Shown: piece after piece, positions 556 through 60,860 of the stretch | Numbering within the stretch: the stretch's first letter is position 1 | Layout of the letters: the number at the start of each line of letters is the position of its first letter | Assembly: GCA_934646835.1 (NCBI GenBank) | Contig: CAKUES010000005.1 | Coordinates: 12,860 to 76,859 of the forward strand | DNA length: 64,000 nucleotides | Reading direction: 5' to 3' | Source of the DNA: an uncultured Coriobacteriales bacterium | Lineage (GTDB): Bacteria > Actinomycetota > Coriobacteriia > Coriobacteriales > QAMH01 | Translations under genes and position numbers: made by a program | The notes under the pieces: generated by a model | Told to the model about the DNA's origin: nothing | Database searches by the model: none | Seen by the model: only the letters and a program-made list of their open reading frames with translations

Positions 556-597
556 TCCAACGCGCGCTTGCGAGACGCCAACCCACCGCAACACGAT

Positions 598-619
598 GGC
601 GCCGACTTCGTCTGGCGCC
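598..619 (-). repeat. REP-like hairpin, class B (degenerate tail)
   Basis: GGCGCCGACTTCGTCTGGCGCC followed by CACA instead of TACG. Same hairpin as 8 other copies. Confidence 0.7.
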
Positions 620-817
620 CACATGGGGTTTCGCGCCCAAAGGCGCTAACGCGAAACTCGCCGCGAGCAGCAGCAAGGCAAGCAAATCATGCCACCCGAG
701 CCATTGTTGGCACCCTGCTTTTTAGCCACAAATACGTTTAAGGAAAGAAATGAACAGGGCCGCAAGTCGATGACCTGCGGCCCCTGCATATAAGTGATTT
801 CCATCTGACGGGAGCGA

Positions 818-5134: not shown

Positions 5135-5252
5135 CTAGGGAGACACTGATTAATGCGAGGTTTATGGGGAGGGACAGGGTCCCTCCCCTACGTGACCAGC
5201 GGTTTTGCCAATCGTACGCAGCGGGCACTTGCTTTAATCAGCGTTTCCCTAG
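5135..5252 (+). mobile_element. MITE-like element (about 118 bp), copy 1, carrying a class A REP hairpin
   Basis: CTAGGGAGACACTGATTAATGCGAGG...GGGGAGGGACAGGGTCCCTCCCCTACG...GCTTTAATCAGCGTTTCCCTAG. Has terminal inverted repeats and CTAG at both ends. Four copies in the window. Confidence 0.85.
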
Positions 5253-5551: not shown

Positions 5552-5588
5552 CCACCTCGCAGGCGCAAGCCATCTCGCAGCAAGCTAT

Positions 5589-5614
5589 GGCGCCGACTAC
5601 GTCAGGCGCCTACG
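5589..5614 (-). repeat. REP-like hairpin, class B, plus TACG
   Basis: GGCGCCGACTACGTCAGGCGCC followed by TACG. Confidence 0.8.
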
Positions 5615-5687
5615 TGGGGTCCAGGGCTCACCGTCGCTAACGCGAGAGCGCCTCGTTCGCGGCAAGGACAGAGCGGCTCGCACCAGT

Positions 5688-8507: not shown

Positions 8508-8623
8508 TGACATCGTGACACACATTGTGCCAGTGACATTGTGTATCACGGACAAAACGCTCGGGCATATCGCATACCTAAACCAGTGACACACAATGTC
8601 ACTGGCACAATGTGTGTCACGAC
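8508..8623. repeat. Foldback element family D: inverted pair of 35-bp units between the activation-domain gene and metH
   Basis: GTGACACACATTGTGCCAGTGACATTGTGTATCAC (8515-8549) and GTGACACACAATGTCACTGGCACAATGTGTGTCAC (8586-8620) are reverse complements with one mismatch. Confidence 0.85.
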
Positions 8624-15526: not shown

Positions 15527-15644
15527 TTAAGGAGATGCTGACCAACGCAAGGTTTATGGGGAGGGACAGGGTCCCTCCCCTACGTAGGCGGCGATTTCCG
15601 CCTTGGGCATCTGCTCGACGCGAAGAGATAGTCCCTCCCCTACG
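15527..15644 (+). repeat. Degenerate MITE/REP-A composite with a duplicated right arm
   Basis: The left half resembles the 118-bp MITE (..GATGCTGACCAACGCAAGGTTTATGGGGAGGGACAGGGTCCCTCCCCTACG). GTCCCTCCCCTACGTAGGCGG is repeated at 15571 and 15631. Confidence 0.7.
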
Positions 15645-18057: not shown

Positions 18058-18256
18058 ATGATCCCCCTTCGCGTTTAGGGCACATGCCAACGGACCGCTT
18101 GCGTGGGCTGCATTGCGTTAGGCGGCAAGACAGCACGGCACGCTGCAGCATCTACCCGATGTACAGACGACTCGAAGTATACGCCCCTGACAAGGATAAA
18201 TCCCGCAGAGAATAGAGTTTGTAAGATTGAATGCGAGCAGATAGCTCAAACTCGCT

Positions 18257-18355
18257 GTGCAATGTGTGCCAGTGACAAAGCGACCACGCCTTGAAGAGCC
18301 GATGACACCGGAACCCTTCATGGCGTGGTCGCTTTGTCACTGGCACACATTGCAC
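18257..18355. repeat. Foldback element family D, long form
   Basis: GTGCAATGTGTGCCAGTGACAAAGCGACCACGCC (18257-18290) is the perfect reverse complement of 18322-18355. Confidence 0.85.
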
Positions 18356-18697
18356 ACATTGCACTCCGGTGTACTTTATCTTGCTTGTGAATAATCCGCT
18401 CACGCGCGGCAAGCGGAAACCTCCTTGAATCGTGCGCCGCGCTCCGTATACTGCATAGCCGAGAGACGACCACTGTGGTCATTCTGCTATCTCTCGCGGC
18501 TCCGCAAGCCGGGGCAATTCTTCTGCAAAGGGTGCTGGTCACCCTCTCATATCGAGCCCACCGGCCCCTTCTGCAACGGGTTTGGGCATTACTGCACAAT
18601 GCCATACCGCTCACTCACATCAACTGCCTGCGCTTTGGTGCAGTCTCGCGCTGGCCTTCGCTCGCCCAGACGGCGACGCGAAAGAAAGGAATTTGCA

Positions 18698-22959: not shown

Positions 22960-22986
22960 CGTAGGGGAGGGACCCTGTCCCTTCCC
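22960..22986 (+). repeat. REP-like hairpin, class A (CGTA head on the plus strand)
   Basis: CGTAGGGGAGGGACCCTGTCCCTTCCC. Confidence 0.8.
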
Positions 22987-23050
22987 ATAGGCCTCTCATC
23001 AATCAGCGCCTCCCTGGCACCGAATCGCCACCCATCCCCACCACATGAAA

Positions 23051-25642: not shown

Positions 25643-25778
25643 TCAGTGCTGAAGATACATACCCCTCCAGTGTAACCGATGGAAAAGACGCAAAAGACAC
25701 CGTCACCCTGTTGTGCGCAAGCCGTAAGAAGACGACGGGGTGTCATTCGGGCCTACATTCAACATGGCGGACCTGCAC

Positions 25779-25889
25779 CAGCGTGACACACTTTGTGCCA
25801 GTGACATTGTGTGTCATGCCATAGAATCGCAGGATTCCCGAGTCTTCTGCATGAAACACAATGTCACTGGCACAAAGTGTGTCACGCTG
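25779..25889. repeat. Foldback element family D: 41-bp inverted repeats with a 29-bp spacer
   Basis: CAGCGTGACACACTTTGTGCCAGTGACATTGTGTGTCATGC (25779-25819) against 25849-25889, one mismatch. Confidence 0.9.
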
Positions 25890-28525: not shown

Positions 28526-28550
28526 AAGAGCGTGCCAAACCTGATAGTTC

Positions 28551-28624
28551 TGTACGTCTGAGACCTGGTCATTTCCGTTCAACGCCTTTGGCTTGAACGG
28601 AAATGACCAGGTCTCAGACATACA
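28551..28624. repeat. 32-bp-arm palindrome after azlD (terminator-like)
   Basis: TGTACGTCTGAGACCTGGTCATTTCCGTTCAA (28551-28582) against 28593-28624, one mismatch, 10-nt loop. Confidence 0.85.
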
Positions 28625-28636
28625 GAGCGTGGGGCA

Positions 28637-28739
28637 GCAATTCTCTGAACGATTAGTCGTTCAGAGAATTGCCGAAACAGCGCCTTTTGCCCTGAAACCC
28701 GTATTGTCTGAACGATTGGTCGTTCAGACAATACGGGTT
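28637..28739. repeat. Family E hairpins (CTGAACGA-NNNN-TCGTTCAG core), two units
   Basis: GCAATTCTCTGAACGA-TTAG-TCGTTCAGAGAATTGC (28637-28672) and AACCCGTATTGTCTGAACGA-TTGG-TCGTTCAGACAATACGGGTT (28696-28739). Same family as 49861-50140. Confidence 0.9.
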
Positions 28740-28851
28740 ACGGCACCTGTCCCATTCGAGACGCGGCTTTAGCACCGCGCATCTTCAGCTTGGCTTCAGA
28801 TAGCGCGCCTATAATGCTGCCAACAGGAAACAAGAACCGAAGGCAGGCCCC

Positions 28852-34719: not shown

Positions 34720-34741
34720 AGAGGCGCGGGAGCCCGCACGG

Positions 34742-34800
34742 GTGACACACAATGTACCAGTGACGGTGACACACAATGTACCAGTGACAAAGTGTGTCAC
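34742..34800. repeat. Family D hairpin unit with a partial tandem duplication
   Basis: GTGACACACAATGTACCAGTGAC-G-GTGACACACAATGTACCAGTGACAAAGTGTGTCAC. Confidence 0.85.
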
Positions 34801-34821
34801 GCCGGCCCGCTGTTACCTAAT

Positions 34822-34847
34822 GGCGCCGACTTCGTCTGGCGCCTACG
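34822..34847 (-). repeat. REP-like hairpin, class B, plus TACG
   Basis: GGCGCCGACTTCGTCTGGCGCC followed by TACG. Confidence 0.85.
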
Positions 34848-34902
34848 TGGGGTCCGGGGCCCGCAGATGCTAACGCGAAGCTCACGGCGAGCAGCAAGGT
34901 TT

Positions 34903-35394: not shown

Positions 35395-35528
35395 TGCCCC
35401 AAGACAGCGCGGCGCCCCATTCGGGACCAGCAAGTTAGAGAGCCCGTTCACGGCGAACAGCCGATGGATTCGCAAGCCCCTCCCCGGCGGCTCGGGCTGC
35501 AGGTTTACGCCATCTCGTTGCAACCCGT

Positions 35529-35554
35529 GGCGCCGACTTCGTCTGGCGCCTACG
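35529..35554 (-). repeat. REP-like hairpin, class B, plus TACG
   Basis: GGCGCCGACTTCGTCTGGCGCC followed by TACG. Confidence 0.85.
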
Positions 35555-35629
35555 AGGGGTCGGGGCCCACCGGTGCTGACGCGAGGCTCACGGCGAGCAG
35601 CAGAACCCGGCCCCCGGCACGCGTCGCAA

Positions 35630-36697: not shown

Positions 36698-36762
36698 ACT
36701 TCGCTGCGCACAATCGCCCTCAAGAGCGAGCTGTAGACACCCGCCAGCTCGACGCAACCTAT

Positions 36763-36788
36763 GGCGCCGACTGCGTCTGGCGCCTACG
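36763..36788 (-). repeat. REP-like hairpin, class B, plus TACG
   Basis: GGCGCCGACTGCGTCTGGCGCC followed by TACG. Confidence 0.85.
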
Positions 36789-36834
36789 TGAGGTCCGGGG
36801 CCCACAGATGCTGACGCGAAGCTCGCAGCGCTGG

Positions 36835-38430: not shown

Positions 38431-38549
38431 CCAGGGAAATGCTGATTAATGCGAGGCTTATGGGGAGGGACTTCGGTCCCTCCCCTACGTAACCAGCGGT
38501 TTTGCTAATCGTATGCGGAAAGCATCTCCCTTAATGAGCGTTTCCCTAG
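38431..38549 (+). mobile_element. MITE-like element, copy 2 (loop variant TTCG); abuts and supplies the stop codon of the adjacent gene
   Basis: CCAGGGAAATGCTGATTAATGCGAGG...GGGGAGGGACTTCGGTCCCTCCCCTACG...CTTAATGAGCGTTTCCCTAG. The terminal CTAG contains the TAG stop of CDS 38546..40498. Confidence 0.85.
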
Positions 38550-40498: not shown

Positions 40499-40606
40499 TG
40501 ATTGCAGTCCTTCCTCTCCTCAAAAAAGACAACGCATGCATTTTAGTTCGCATGCGTTGTCTTGCCGAGCACCCAAGTTGGGTGATTTTGTGGTTATAGG
40601 GCTGCG

Positions 40607-40642
40607 TGTGACACACTTTGTGCCAGTGACATTGTGTGTCAC
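40607..40642. repeat. Family D hairpin unit (type 1: TT/TT bubble, loop GCCAGTG)
   Basis: GTGACACACTTTGTGCCAGTGACATTGTGTGTCAC. Confidence 0.85.
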
Positions 40643-40699
40643 CAAATCCGTCATTCTGAGCGTTGACCCGCAGAACAACCTTTGATTGTGTGCTGTGCT

Positions 40700-41449: not shown

Positions 41450-41580
41450 CGTAGGGGAGGGACCCTGTCCCTCCCCTTGAACCCTGCAGGTTCATAGCGG
41501 CAAAGCCCCAATACGCTACGTTGCACGATTCCCGCTGTCATCGCATGGGATATGGGGAGGGACAGGGTCCCTCCCCTACG
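41450..41580. repeat. Inverted pair of class A REP hairpins (about 131 bp unit)
   Basis: CGTAGGGGAGGGACCCTGTCCCTCCCC (41450-41476) and GGGGAGGGACAGGGTCCCTCCCCTACG (41554-41580) face each other across 77 bp. Confidence 0.9.
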
Positions 41581-41610
41581 AAGGACAACGCCCCGCAAGC
41601 AGCCTCATCC

Positions 41611-42683: not shown

Positions 42684-42821
42684 CGTAGGGGAAGGACCCT
42701 GTCCCTCCCCATATGCCATGCAACAATCCGAAAGCCCACACACAAGACAAGCACGCTTCAAAACAGCATGGCTCGTTGACAACACAGCACTCCCAGGGAG
42801 GGACAGGGTCCCTCCCCTACG
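42684..42821. repeat. Inverted pair of class A REP hairpins
   Basis: CGTAGGGGAAGGACCCTGTCCCTCCCC (42684-42710) and GGGAGGGACAGGGTCCCTCCCCTACG (42796-42821). Confidence 0.9.
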
Positions 42822-42978
42822 AAATCAAGCTCCCAATCTGGTGCTTCTGCGCAGGCGCCGCAGCACCGATAACGTCACGGCGCGCCCAATCGGACACGGC
42901 GCGCTCTGGCGCAAAGAAGGGGCATACCAATCGGCACGCCCCTCCCCTAATGAATCATATGGACTTTGCTCCCGCAGC

Positions 42979-45320: not shown

Positions 45321-45456
45321 CGTAGGGGAGGGACCCTGTCCCTCCCCATGAACGATGCAAAGTCAAGAGTGTCGTAAGCCCTGACGATGCCTCGCACAGT
45401 CGCAATGTAACTTAACACGCCTGTCATATGGGGAGGGACAGGGTCCCTCCCCTACG
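45321..45456. repeat. Inverted pair of class A REP hairpins
   Basis: CGTAGGGGAGGGACCCTGTCCCTCCCC (45321-45347) and GGGGAGGGACAGGGTCCCTCCCCTACG (45430-45456). Confidence 0.9.
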
Positions 45457-45467
45457 CTCGACATAGC

Positions 45468-49467: not shown

Positions 49468-49718
49468 CCTTGTCCTCCTTTCTTGCCCGGGACCACGCGG
49501 GCCCCCTCTTTAGTACTAACTGCTCTGCAAATAAACACAGCAGAGCCCCTCCTGCGAAAAAACGCATAGTCAGAAGTATATGGGCAAATCACTATGCAAG
49601 CGGTGAAATTAACCGATAAATGGCCACTAATGCAGCAGCCTTGCAAGTACTCAGCATACGGCGGCGCGAGATTCCAAGCGCGCGTTGCCCCCGCGGACAA
49701 GCTTGCCGGTCGCCGTTG

Positions 49719-49836
49719 CTAGAGAAACGCTGATTAAAGCAAGTGCCCGCTGCGTACGATTGGCAAAACCGCTGGTCACGTAGGGGAGGGACCCTGTCCC
49801 TCCCCATAAACCTTGCATTAATCACTGTTTCCCTAG
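49719..49836 (-). mobile_element. MITE-like element, copy 3 (inverted orientation)
   Basis: CTAGAGAAACGCTGATTAAAGC...CGTAGGGGAGGGACCCTGTCCCTCCCC...GCATTAATCACTGTTTCCCTAG. Confidence 0.85.
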
Positions 49837-49860
49837 ACACCGCCCTGTCATCCCAGGAGC

Positions 49861-50140
49861 AATTGTCTGAACGAAATTTCGTTCAGACAATTCGTGAAAC
49901 CGCTGCCACAGGCCCTTTTCTGCGATTATCTGAACGATTTGCCATTCAGACTTTTCTCGAAATCCTCACTGTAGGCGCTTTTCTGCAATCTTCTGAATGA
50001 TTGGTCGTTCAGAAGATTGCAACCCTCGCTGCACGACCCTTCCCCAATTGCCTGAACGATATTTCGTTCAGGCAATTGGGGAAACCTCCGCCGCAAGCCC
50101 TTTTCCATAATTGTCTGAACGGATAATCATTCAGACAATC
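49861..50140. repeat. Tandem array of five family E hairpins, period about 62 bp
   Basis: Hairpins at 49861-49892, about 49924-49956 (degenerate), 49985-50020, 50042-50081 and about 50109-50140. Related linkers follow the pattern GAAAC.(G/T)C..C....GC.CTTTTC.GC. Confidence 0.9.
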
Positions 50141-50186
50141 ACAAAAGGCACCCCGCGCTTCTGCAATCCTCCCCTACTCACACCAA

Positions 50187-50222
50187 CAAAAAGAGCCGCA
50201 GGCGAATACCTGCGGCTCTTTG
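50187..50222 (-). terminator. Intrinsic terminator immediately after the substrate-binding-protein gene
   Basis: The minus strand reads AAGAGCCGCAGG-TATTCG-CCTGCGGCTCTTTTTG. Confidence 0.8.
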
Positions 50223-58747: not shown

Positions 58748-58866
58748 CTAGGGAAACGCCGAGCAATGCGAGGTTTATGGGGAGGGACAGGGTCCCTCCC
58801 CTACGTAACCAGCGGTTTTGCTAATTGCAGATATTGGGTATCTGCTTTAACCGGCGTTTCCCCATG
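58748..58866 (+). mobile_element. MITE-like element, copy 4 (right end degenerate)
   Basis: CTAGGGAAACGCCGAGCAATGCGAGG...GGGGAGGGACAGGGTCCCTCCCCTACG...CTTTAACCGGCGTTTCCCCATG. Confidence 0.8.
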
Positions 58867-60645: not shown

Positions 60646-60820
60646 TGACGGTCTCCTCTCATGATGGATCGCACACGCTTGCACCAGCCGCGGCTTCGGC
60701 TTGCGCAAGCTTATGCGATGCGAACACATACAGCCAACAGAATAGCCGCTTGAAAGAAGCGCGCGAGATCACGTGGCCTATTTGACGCAAAAGAGCACAA
60801 ACGACAGGAGGTGCGGCCTG

Positions 60821-60860
60821 CGTGACACACAATGTGCCAGTGACAAAGTGTGTCATGGCC
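60821..60860. repeat. Family D hairpin unit (type 2: AA/AA bubble, loop GCCAGTG)
   Basis: GTGACACACAATGTGCCAGTGACAAAGTGTGTCAT. Confidence 0.85.

Follow-up and report, generated by a model that had tools for sequence, protein, structure and literature searches.

A tandem array of palindromes, probably an untagged REP-like family, between the solute-binding protein and permease genes of a coriobacterial ABC importer operon

Genomic context of the array

The window (the whole stretch of 64,000 nt analysed here, from contig CAKUES010000005.1 of an uncultured Coriobacteriales bacterium) carries on its minus strand an ABC importer operon which, according to Pfam, is composed of a family-5 solute-binding protein (SBP) gene, a permease gene, a permease-ATPase fusion and a second ATPase gene. 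The closest named homologs of the SBP were encountered in Eggerthella lenta (62 %), Gordonibacter and Arabiibacter, along with others from unnamed Eggerthellaceae/Coriobacteriia MAGs; and exact-protein matches of the locus came from human-gut metagenome contigs of the Hadza and other cohorts. The gap between the SBP gene and the first permease gene harbors five hairpin units. Two further units of the same family were located in an unrelated intergenic gap, between azlD and a response-regulator gene, where Pfam assigned the plus-strand genes to azlC, azlD, an OmpR-type response regulator and a histidine kinase, in this order. A long palindrome is also present on this azlD side, at 28550-28625. 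The features considered below are the following.

51920->50259, minus strand: family-5 solute-binding protein gene (SBP_bac_5), the upstream gene
50190..50221, minus strand: intrinsic terminator of the SBP gene, GAGCCGCAGG-TATTCG-CCTGCGGCTC plus a T run; 5' of the array in the transcript
49855..50146, no strand: five-unit head-to-tail array, ~63 bp per unit (hairpin and 27-31-nt linker)
49861..49892: unit u1, perfect 14-bp stem, core CTGAACGA-AATT-TCGTTCAG
49924..49955: unit u2, degenerate, two core transition mismatches, outer stem lost; CATTCAG defect in common with u5
49984..50021: unit u3, 17-pair stem with one G·T (CTGAATGA / TCGTTCAG), outer stem ATCTT/AAGAT
50040..50083: unit u4, perfect 20-bp stem, outer stem CCCCAATTGC/GCAATTGGGG
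50110..50139: unit u5, ~13 pairs, two core transition mismatches
49719..49837: 118-bp MITE with a GTAG-tagged hairpin, beside the array
49468..49660, minus strand: conserved leader 5' of the permease gene, containing CCATATACTTCTGACTATGCGTTTTTT and common to relatives without the array
49467->48511, minus strand: first permease gene, GTG start, AGGAGG ribosome-binding site
28637..28672: unit a1, gap between azlD and the response-regulator gene, perfect 16-bp stem, outer stem ATTCT/AGAAT
28696..28739: unit a2, same gap, perfect 20-bp stem

Along the transcribed strand, the SBP stop codon is followed by the terminator, the five units, the MITE, ~250 nt of leader and the permease start. This agrees with the sequence-only reading, a first description made from the letters of the window, which had placed the array after an intrinsic terminator of the SBP gene and before the permease genes, with a MITE copy adjoining it. 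The terminator hairpin (50221-50190) displayed 14 pairs, eight of them G-C, and a T-rich tail; and the MITE (118 bp, 49719-49837) was 97 % complementary to positions 5135-5252. A terminator-type G+C-rich hairpin directly 3' of the SBP stop codon was kept by every relative compared. The CCATATACTTCTGACTATGCGTTTTTT block of the leader, located ~130 nt 5' of the permease start, was also found in closer relatives, and the leader (49468-49660) may comprise a promoter and 5' UTR belonging to the permease genes themselves. The MITE is an independent and later insertion beside the array; two of the relatives compared below (L148 and L140) are devoid of it. Several GTAG-tagged palindrome families occur in the same window.

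Organization of the units

The hairpin core CTGAAYGR-N4-YYRTTCAG was found in seven units of the window, five in the gap of the ABC operon and two after azlD, which are the number and the sites announced by the sequence-only reading. When CTGAACGANNNNTCGTTCAG was searched with up to three mismatches, the window yielded seven matches where 0.34 were expected, a count that no shuffle out of 100 attained. Units of the ABC array lie within 49867-50134, their cores starting at 49867, 49930, 49993, 50052 and 50115 (spacings of 63, 63, 59 and 63); the two azlD-side cores start at 28645 and 28708.

The palindrome CTGAACGA-N4-TCGTTCAG is the basis of all seven units. Stems ranged from 13 to 20 bp across units, with loops of 4 nt and hairpins of 30-44 nt. 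Perfect Watson-Crick stems were displayed by u1 at 49867 (14 bp), by the unit at 28645 (16 bp) and by those at 28708 and 50052 (20 bp each), so that the stem lengths of up to 20 perfect bp reported earlier were recovered. The core had also been called invariant, which was an overstatement: it was exact in only four of the seven units, mismatches being present in the other three. One such mismatch affected the unit at 49993 (u3), whose 17 pairs include one G·T, while two transitions each were found in the units at 49930 and 50115, where the outer stems are degenerate. Each of the four quoted outer-stem variants (ATTGT/ACAAT, ATTCT/AGAAT, ATCTT/AAGAT and ATTGC/GCAAT) was present in the window.

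Every hairpin is followed by a linker of 27-31 nt with the loose motif GAAAC...GCCCTTTTC. As a shared element this motif stood in part, being clear in four units (49867, 49930, 50052 and 28645) and weaker in the remaining three. Linkers within the array were more alike in direct (identity 0.61-0.77) than in reverse (0.48-0.58) comparison, which indicates that all array units are arranged head-to-tail. The unit linker is also partly symmetric in itself. All units were extragenic: the seven of the window, as well as seven others from relatives L140 and L148, lie between genes.

An array of intrinsic terminators was rejected, since no T run follows any of the five units on either strand; the terminator scan retrieved the SBP terminator only. 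MIRU-like, translationally coupled mini-ORFs were rejected as well, since no frame stays open: stop codons or the 59-nt unit interrupt each of them. We know of no operator that matches the core. The Gram-positive LexA box reads GAAC-N4-GTTC; a LexA/Cheo-box reading was discarded, as the core corresponds to GAAC-N8-GTTC, with a half-site spacing of eight instead of four.

The period of 59-63 bp, together with a GAAAC located 3-4 nt after the hairpin in four of the seven units, recalls a degenerate or orphan CRISPR-like array, in which hairpin and GAAAC would constitute a repeat with its 3' handle. This is highly improbable: the "repeats" were 60-81 % identical, the "spacers" were related to each other and the variable part, once hairpin and handle are set aside, is just ~22 nt long. 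Moreover, no cas genes were present among the neighbouring ORFs checked and no leader was seen, the array had no Rfam match, and at one locus the units are antisense to the operon.

Distribution among relatives

The sequence-only reading had called for a comparison of unit numbers in the SBP-permease gap, and zero, two or five units were found among relatives. Flank identity was computed over 770 nt at the 3' end of the SBP gene together with 600 nt at the 5' end of the permease gene.

L136, L137: flank identity 77-80 %; gap ~216 nt; 0 units
L135: flank identity 82-88 %; gap ~280 nt; 0 units
L154: flank identity 87-91 %; gap 326 nt; 0 units
L140, L141: flank identity 93-94 %; gap 497 nt; 2 diverged units; no MITE
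L148: flank identity 98 %; gap 672 nt; 5 units; no MITE
Window, L149-L153: flank identity 99-100 %; gap 790 nt; 5 units and MITE

Contigs L001-L006, L142-L147, L149-L153, L158 and L159 are near-identical and belong to the same species, and were uninformative on copy number. As unit number follows a graded 0/2/5 series, the array is evidently, from this comparison, a recent lineage-specific insertion and expansion and not an ancestral part of the operon. The SBP-permease spacer which contains it lies between two conserved functional elements. Being absent or variable (0, 2, 5) in relatives, it is to be regarded as an add-on repeat cluster and not as a built-in regulator of the SBP:permease ratio. 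The understanding of ABC operons is left unchanged, since this operon also works in relatives that have no array.

Divergence of the array

The arrays of the window and of L148 align unit by unit. Identity amounted to 98.1 % and 98.7 % for their flanking genes and to 91 % for the 112 nt that follow the stop codon, and the last ~190 nt of the leader displayed about four differences. The arrays, in contrast, were only 71 % identical overall, with 81 % for stems, 50 % for loops and 67 % for linkers. The array thus diverges several times faster than its flanks.

Positional orthologs were often not nearest relatives. Unit C of L148 differed from the azlD-locus unit a1 at three of 36 positions, two of which formed one compensated pair, and from its positional ortholog u3 at seven of 36. 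Two other pairs of orthologs, u4/B and u2/D, displayed 13 differences out of 36 each. This argues for replacement or conversion of hairpins among copies, also between loci. Whole hairpins appear to be exchanged between family copies, those of the two loci included. Within the array of the window, u1 and u4 were 81 % identical, the CATTCAG defect is common to u2 and u5, and the two-unit blocks 49860-49951 and 50045-50136 were 79 % identical; growth of the array by duplication of unit blocks is suggested.

Covariation of the stems

Among the first nine units considered, 78.9 % of cells were paired, 11 pairs had changed on both sides and the covariation score was matched by none of 500 shuffles. 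The complete set of 14 units (the seven of the window and those of L140 and L148) displayed 86.6 % of paired cells, versus 29-43 % when partners were slid. Its covariation score was 0.253 versus 0.137 after shuffling, none of 500 shuffles being as high, and double changes were found in 17 cells where 7.5 were expected. Covariation was confined to the eight outer pairs; the eight core pairs hardly varied.

The same was visible between orthologs. The 80 stem pairs of the five hairpins shared by the window and L148 included eight compensated double changes, against a mean of 0.67 upon partner shuffling, and none of 10,000 shuffles reached eight. One-sided stem changes between the two arrays left the pair intact through G·U in six cases and broke it in six others. 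Within the species, stem SNPs were single and uncompensated, e.g. ATTGT to ACTGT in L142.

The paired stem changes, which the sequence-only reading had taken as a sign of selection on structure, are thus real and far above chance; selection on RNA structure is not proven thereby. Templated correction of quasipalindromes, through template switching during replication, is a known non-selective source of compensatory changes (PMC7202029). As template switching or replacement of whole hairpins can mimic covariation, the step from covariation to structural selection is insecure.

The 16 core bases remained near-constant while loop, outer stem and linker drift fast. A core kept so constant requires selection, or else a process with a strong bias, and, beside such freely varying parts, it suggests that the hairpin or palindrome is recognised by its sequence. 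The units might be phased double-stranded sites for a dimeric DNA-binding protein reading CTGAACGA-N4-TCGTTCAG, the symmetry of the outer arms being a legacy of their origin. Regulators, nucleoid proteins and partition-type proteins are candidates for such a protein. The nearly invariant core bases next to a variable loop, outer stem and linker, the 63-bp spacing (six helical turns) and mismatches without strand bias would all suit this reading. It is nevertheless quite improbable: paired changes were also found at outer-stem positions which such a protein would not read, the same promoter regions of relatives are devoid of sites, and the sites lie behind a terminator, not over a promoter.

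RNA or DNA level

Read on the transcribed strand, the 14 units comprise 182 stem pairs, of which 163 were Watson-Crick, seven G·U, five A·C and seven other mismatches. An A·C on the transcribed strand is a G·U on the opposite one, and G·U-type mismatches therefore displayed no strand bias (seven sense versus five antisense), so that nothing points to one transcript strand as the selected molecule. Predicted RNA stabilities ranged from -18 to -27 kcal/mol for intact units, and the gap taken as a whole had a z-score of -12; the hairpins were computed as stable in DNA form too. Rfam 15 gave no match in the window at gathering threshold and, at a permissive threshold, only sub-threshold miRNA-like noise in the gap.

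Such highly stable RNA hairpins with covarying stems, inserted at the same kind of site, i.e. from an SBP gene to permease genes, could be taken for a REP-type RNA element tuning the operon. Transcribed either along with the SBP message or in the 5' portion of the permease message, such an element would stabilise the upstream mRNA or attenuate read-through and thereby set the SBP:permease stoichiometry, like the REPs of malE-malF in E. coli and of hisJ-hisQ in Salmonella. Only a small chance is given here to this reading. The array is located 3' of a canonical terminator which is universal in relatives and already is a 3' stabilising hairpin, and the same operon in close relatives is found with zero or two units. 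The second locus is the unrelated gap between azlD and the response-regulator gene, the G·U and A·C mismatches lack strand bias, and the hairpins have no U-tracts on either strand. A dedicated role of the array in SBP:permease stoichiometry is thus unlikely, this role being already filled by the terminator hairpin that every relative keeps. The sequence-only reading had itself doubted a malE-malF-type role, rightly so, as the array stands behind a terminator and is missing in relatives.

Searches for further copies and for a partner gene

Two loci of the family were encountered in ~73 kb of this genome, and a covariance model built on the 14 units retrieved no extra copy in the window, in ~75 kb of relatives or in ~9 kb past the right end. 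Searching CTGAACGANNNNTCGTTCAG over genome contigs returned at least 111 scattered single matches; most of them corresponded to terminator-like hairpins or to stretches of coding sequence from unrelated phyla. With ATNNNCTGAAYGANNNNTCRTTCAGNNNAT, 17 single chance matches were obtained over metagenome contigs (JGI set, apparently without this species), none of them from this lineage. Two adjacent units had no match over viral contigs, and the array had none against plasmids by distant blastn.

As 63 nt correspond to 21 codons, spurious ORFs could run over such arrays, which is why the translated array was compared with 5.8 and 1.84 billion proteins. The same locus alone was recovered, L148 included, which implies that long arrays of this family are either rare or left out by ORF calling. 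A literature search found no account of such repeats for Eggerthella or Coriobacteriia.

Neither a transposase nor a RAYT or cas gene was detected among the 20 ORFs of the window that were scanned. GTAG and CTAC were absent within 14 nt of any unit, and CGTC occurred once, by chance. No flanking direct duplication was visible at the ends of the array or of the azlD pair. By comparison with MITEs, the hairpin arms could be read as abutting terminal inverted repeats.

Relation to known repeat families

REPs are defined as palindromes of 20-50 nt which follow a conserved tetranucleotide, usually GTAG, and reach high intergenic copy numbers; they are often arranged as BIMEs of inversely oriented REPs and accompanied by a RAYT gene, and a second REP superfamily has CGTC as its tetranucleotide (PMC8266576; PMC3733652). 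This tetranucleotide is essential to binding and cleavage by TnpAREP (PMC8266576). Strict REPs have tens to hundreds of copies scattered across the genome. The units described here have the palindrome size and the extragenic location of strict REPs and lack the tetranucleotide tag; with respect to BIMEs, they display tandem repetition without inverse REP/iREP pairs. Untagged REP-like families are known, however, and REP clusters can be reiterated in tandem along with flanking DNA (PMC3733652). The best fit is an untagged REP-like family with tandem clusters.

Like the present units, the untagged families of Di Nocera et al. 2013 (PMC3733652) consist of short palindromes outside genes whose stem is conserved; they occur singly or in tandem, and vary between strains in copy number and layout as observed here. 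Compared with these families (PMC3733652), the present units belong to a host class (Coriobacteriia, Eggerthellaceae) that does not figure in the papers searched, and have unusually long perfect stems, up to 20 bp. REPINs share other traits, as compensatory changes are common among them and ordered tandem clusters occur (PMC3116915). Those of Pseudomonas fluorescens SBW25 have, as here, a long hairpin whose variable part is kept paired by compensation, and clusters in which hairpin and flank are repeated in tandem, as a population of sequences evolving within the genome (PMC3116915). A REPIN, however, consists of two inverted REPs with a spacer of tens of bases and is RAYT-linked (PMC3116915), whereas the present units have a simple 8-N4-8 core with extended arms.

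The REP-BIMEs of E. coli and Salmonella (malE-malF, hisJ-hisQ) are also tandem hairpins between SBP and permease genes. The array differs from them in being devoid of the GTAG tag, of the conserved stem bulge and of the alternating REP/iREP orientation; furthermore, it stands behind a separate intrinsic terminator and the orthologous operon of close relatives is found without units. Newbury et al. in 1987 and Stern et al. in 1988 reportedly described REPs as having the potential to protect upstream mRNA, a potential which the present hairpins share. Mycobacterial MIRU-VNTRs are tandem units of ~50-100 bp in actinobacterial operon gaps, with strain-variable copy number; MIRUs are direct repeats, often with small ORFs for translational coupling. 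Tandem units in an operon gap are common to both, while long perfect hairpins are found only in the array.

Membership in the REP/RAYT system proper would imply that a RAYT encoded elsewhere in the genome disperses the units as single-stranded DNA hairpins. In its favour, the units are palindromes outside genes whose core is conserved and whose stem covaries; they are found at two unlinked loci, and tandem clusters are known among REPs and REPINs; the GTAG-tagged palindrome families of the window also imply REP-type biology in this genome. Still, none of GTAG, CTAC, CGTC or GACG is conserved beside the hairpins, all units are head-to-tail instead of alternating as REP and iREP, and no RAYT gene was detected among the 20 window ORFs scanned, which leaves this reading unlikely, if with some chance of being right.

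Proposed origin and maintenance

The array is probably a head-to-tail cluster of small, lineage-restricted and untagged REP-like palindromes, maintained at the DNA level and represented by two loci in ~73 kb. The cluster was gained recently between the SBP terminator and the conserved permease leader. It would have grown through tandem duplication of unit blocks, via slippage or unequal exchange, while gene conversion among family copies, between loci too, would homogenise or replace units. The palindrome would be upheld as a single-strand hairpin or cruciform of DNA; templated correction of quasipalindromes and/or a hairpin-specific protein, e.g. a RAYT-like HUH transposase, are likely routes for its upkeep. 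Any effect on the operon would be of a secondary nature. When present in a read-through transcript, the hairpins might serve as additional barriers to 3'-exonucleases or as targets of double-strand RNases.

A bolder proposal, and an improbable one, is that the hairpins are the sites of an undescribed GTAG-free system of Coriobacteriia based on a hairpin-specific protein, the array being a strain-variable read-through insulator. Candidates would be a transposase or recombinase of single-strand DNA, either a new HUH enzyme or one of another kind, or else an RNA-binding or RNA-processing factor, which would spread the repeats and enforce the 8-N4-8 core. If this were true, a strain-variable insulator located between terminator and leader would tune read-through into the permease genes.

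With the array read as a cluster of untagged REP-like palindromes, REP-like repeat biology would reach gut Coriobacteriia. The locus offers a natural case of co-evolving hairpin arms over a short distance, with eight compensated pairs at 98 % flank identity, and could help to part structural selection from templated palindrome correction and gene conversion. The polymorphism of zero, two or five units, along with the neighbouring MITE, is a possible marker for strain typing. Long gap palindromes such as that at 28550-28625 break metagenome assemblies.

REP-like palindromes and an associated MITE

A perfect GTAG-tagged palindrome, CGTAG-GGGAGGGAC-(CCTG)-GTCCCTCCCC, was found in 13 copies in the window, in both orientations:

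Copies of the first GTAG-tagged palindrome
2097-2128, 5167-5198, 15559-15590, 22960-22998, 38464-38495: copies 1-5
41450-41488, 41555-41586, 42684-42722, 42796-42827: copies 6-9
45321-45359, 45431-45462, 49779-49817, 58780-58811: copies 10-13

Their architecture is that of classical REP-like elements of the GTAG superfamily, here in an Eggerthellaceae genome, and implies a putative RAYT-type system in the host. The hairpin of this family also sits inside a 118-bp MITE, the terminal inverted repeats of which read CTAGrGAAACrsTGATTAA:

Copies of the 118-bp MITE
5135-5252, 15527-15641, 38432-38546, 58748-58862: copies elsewhere in the window
49719-49837: copy adjoining the array of five hairpin units

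The copy adjoining the array displayed 97% identity to copy 5135-5252 and was absent from the orthologous gap in two relatives' contigs, L148 and L140. A single CTGG occupied the empty site in L148 while CTAG was found on both sides of the MITE in the window, which suggests a target duplication of four bp.

Permease leader

On the minus strand, the region ahead of the permease start (49468-49660) contained a conserved block, CCATATACTTCTGACTATGCGTTTTTT, and then two small hairpins. Among the orthologous operons compared, the block was common to the window, L148, L140, L154 and L135 and was not found in L136 or L137. The leader resembles a -10 box (TATACT) followed by a structured 5' leader, and the permease genes may therefore have a promoter of their own. 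It had no match in Rfam.

Two-unit array of L140

The two diverged units that make up the array of L140 (4775-4857) were complementary to each other across their facing sides: unit a with its right arm and adjoining flank, unit b with its left arm and adjoining flank, matching at 20 of 21 positions (CGTTCAGACTCTTCGCCAAAC / GTTTGGCGAAGAGTCTGAGCG). Owing to this complementarity, two alternative folds are available to the pair: two small hairpins, or a single long one, the latter being REPIN-like.

Palindrome at the azlD locus

A near-perfect palindrome of 76 bp with 33-bp arms (28550-28625), occurring once in the window, lay immediately 3' of the azlD stop codon and upstream of two further hairpin units of the array's family. 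It is an assembly breakpoint and possibly an unstable site, since several metagenome contigs terminate within it and its left arm carried a 9-nt deletion in the same-species contig L159. A perfect TATAAT was located at 28810-28815, ~40 nt before the start of the response-regulator gene; a promoter consensus scan called no full promoter there. Given this hexamer, the two azlD-locus units, like the ABC array, lie in the interval from where one transcription unit ends to the probable promoter of the following one.

Other inverted-repeat families

A second GTAG-tagged palindrome family (CGTAG-GCGCC-AGACGAAGTC-GGCGCC, reverse-strand reading) displayed seven copies embedded in longer repeats of 70-146 bp, and GTGACACACAATGTnCCAGTGAC formed the basis of a further family, with frequent facing pairs giving hairpins of 40-50 bp:

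Sites of the other families in the window
596-665, 1890-1959, 2185-2254, 5587-5656: second GTAG family, copies 1-4
34820-34889, 35527-35596, 36761-36830: second GTAG family, copies 5-7
8510-8621, 18256-18356, 25778-25889: GTGACACACAATGTnCCAGTGAC family, first three sites
34737-34801, 40603-40643, 60817-60857: GTGACACACAATGTnCCAGTGAC family, last three sites

Another GTAG-tagged hairpin, GGGGCGGAATGAACTCCGCCCC-TACG, was contained in a 100-bp segment present twice (1916-2015 and 2211-2310). The window's initial 2.4 kb consisted almost entirely of repeats and had low coding potential.
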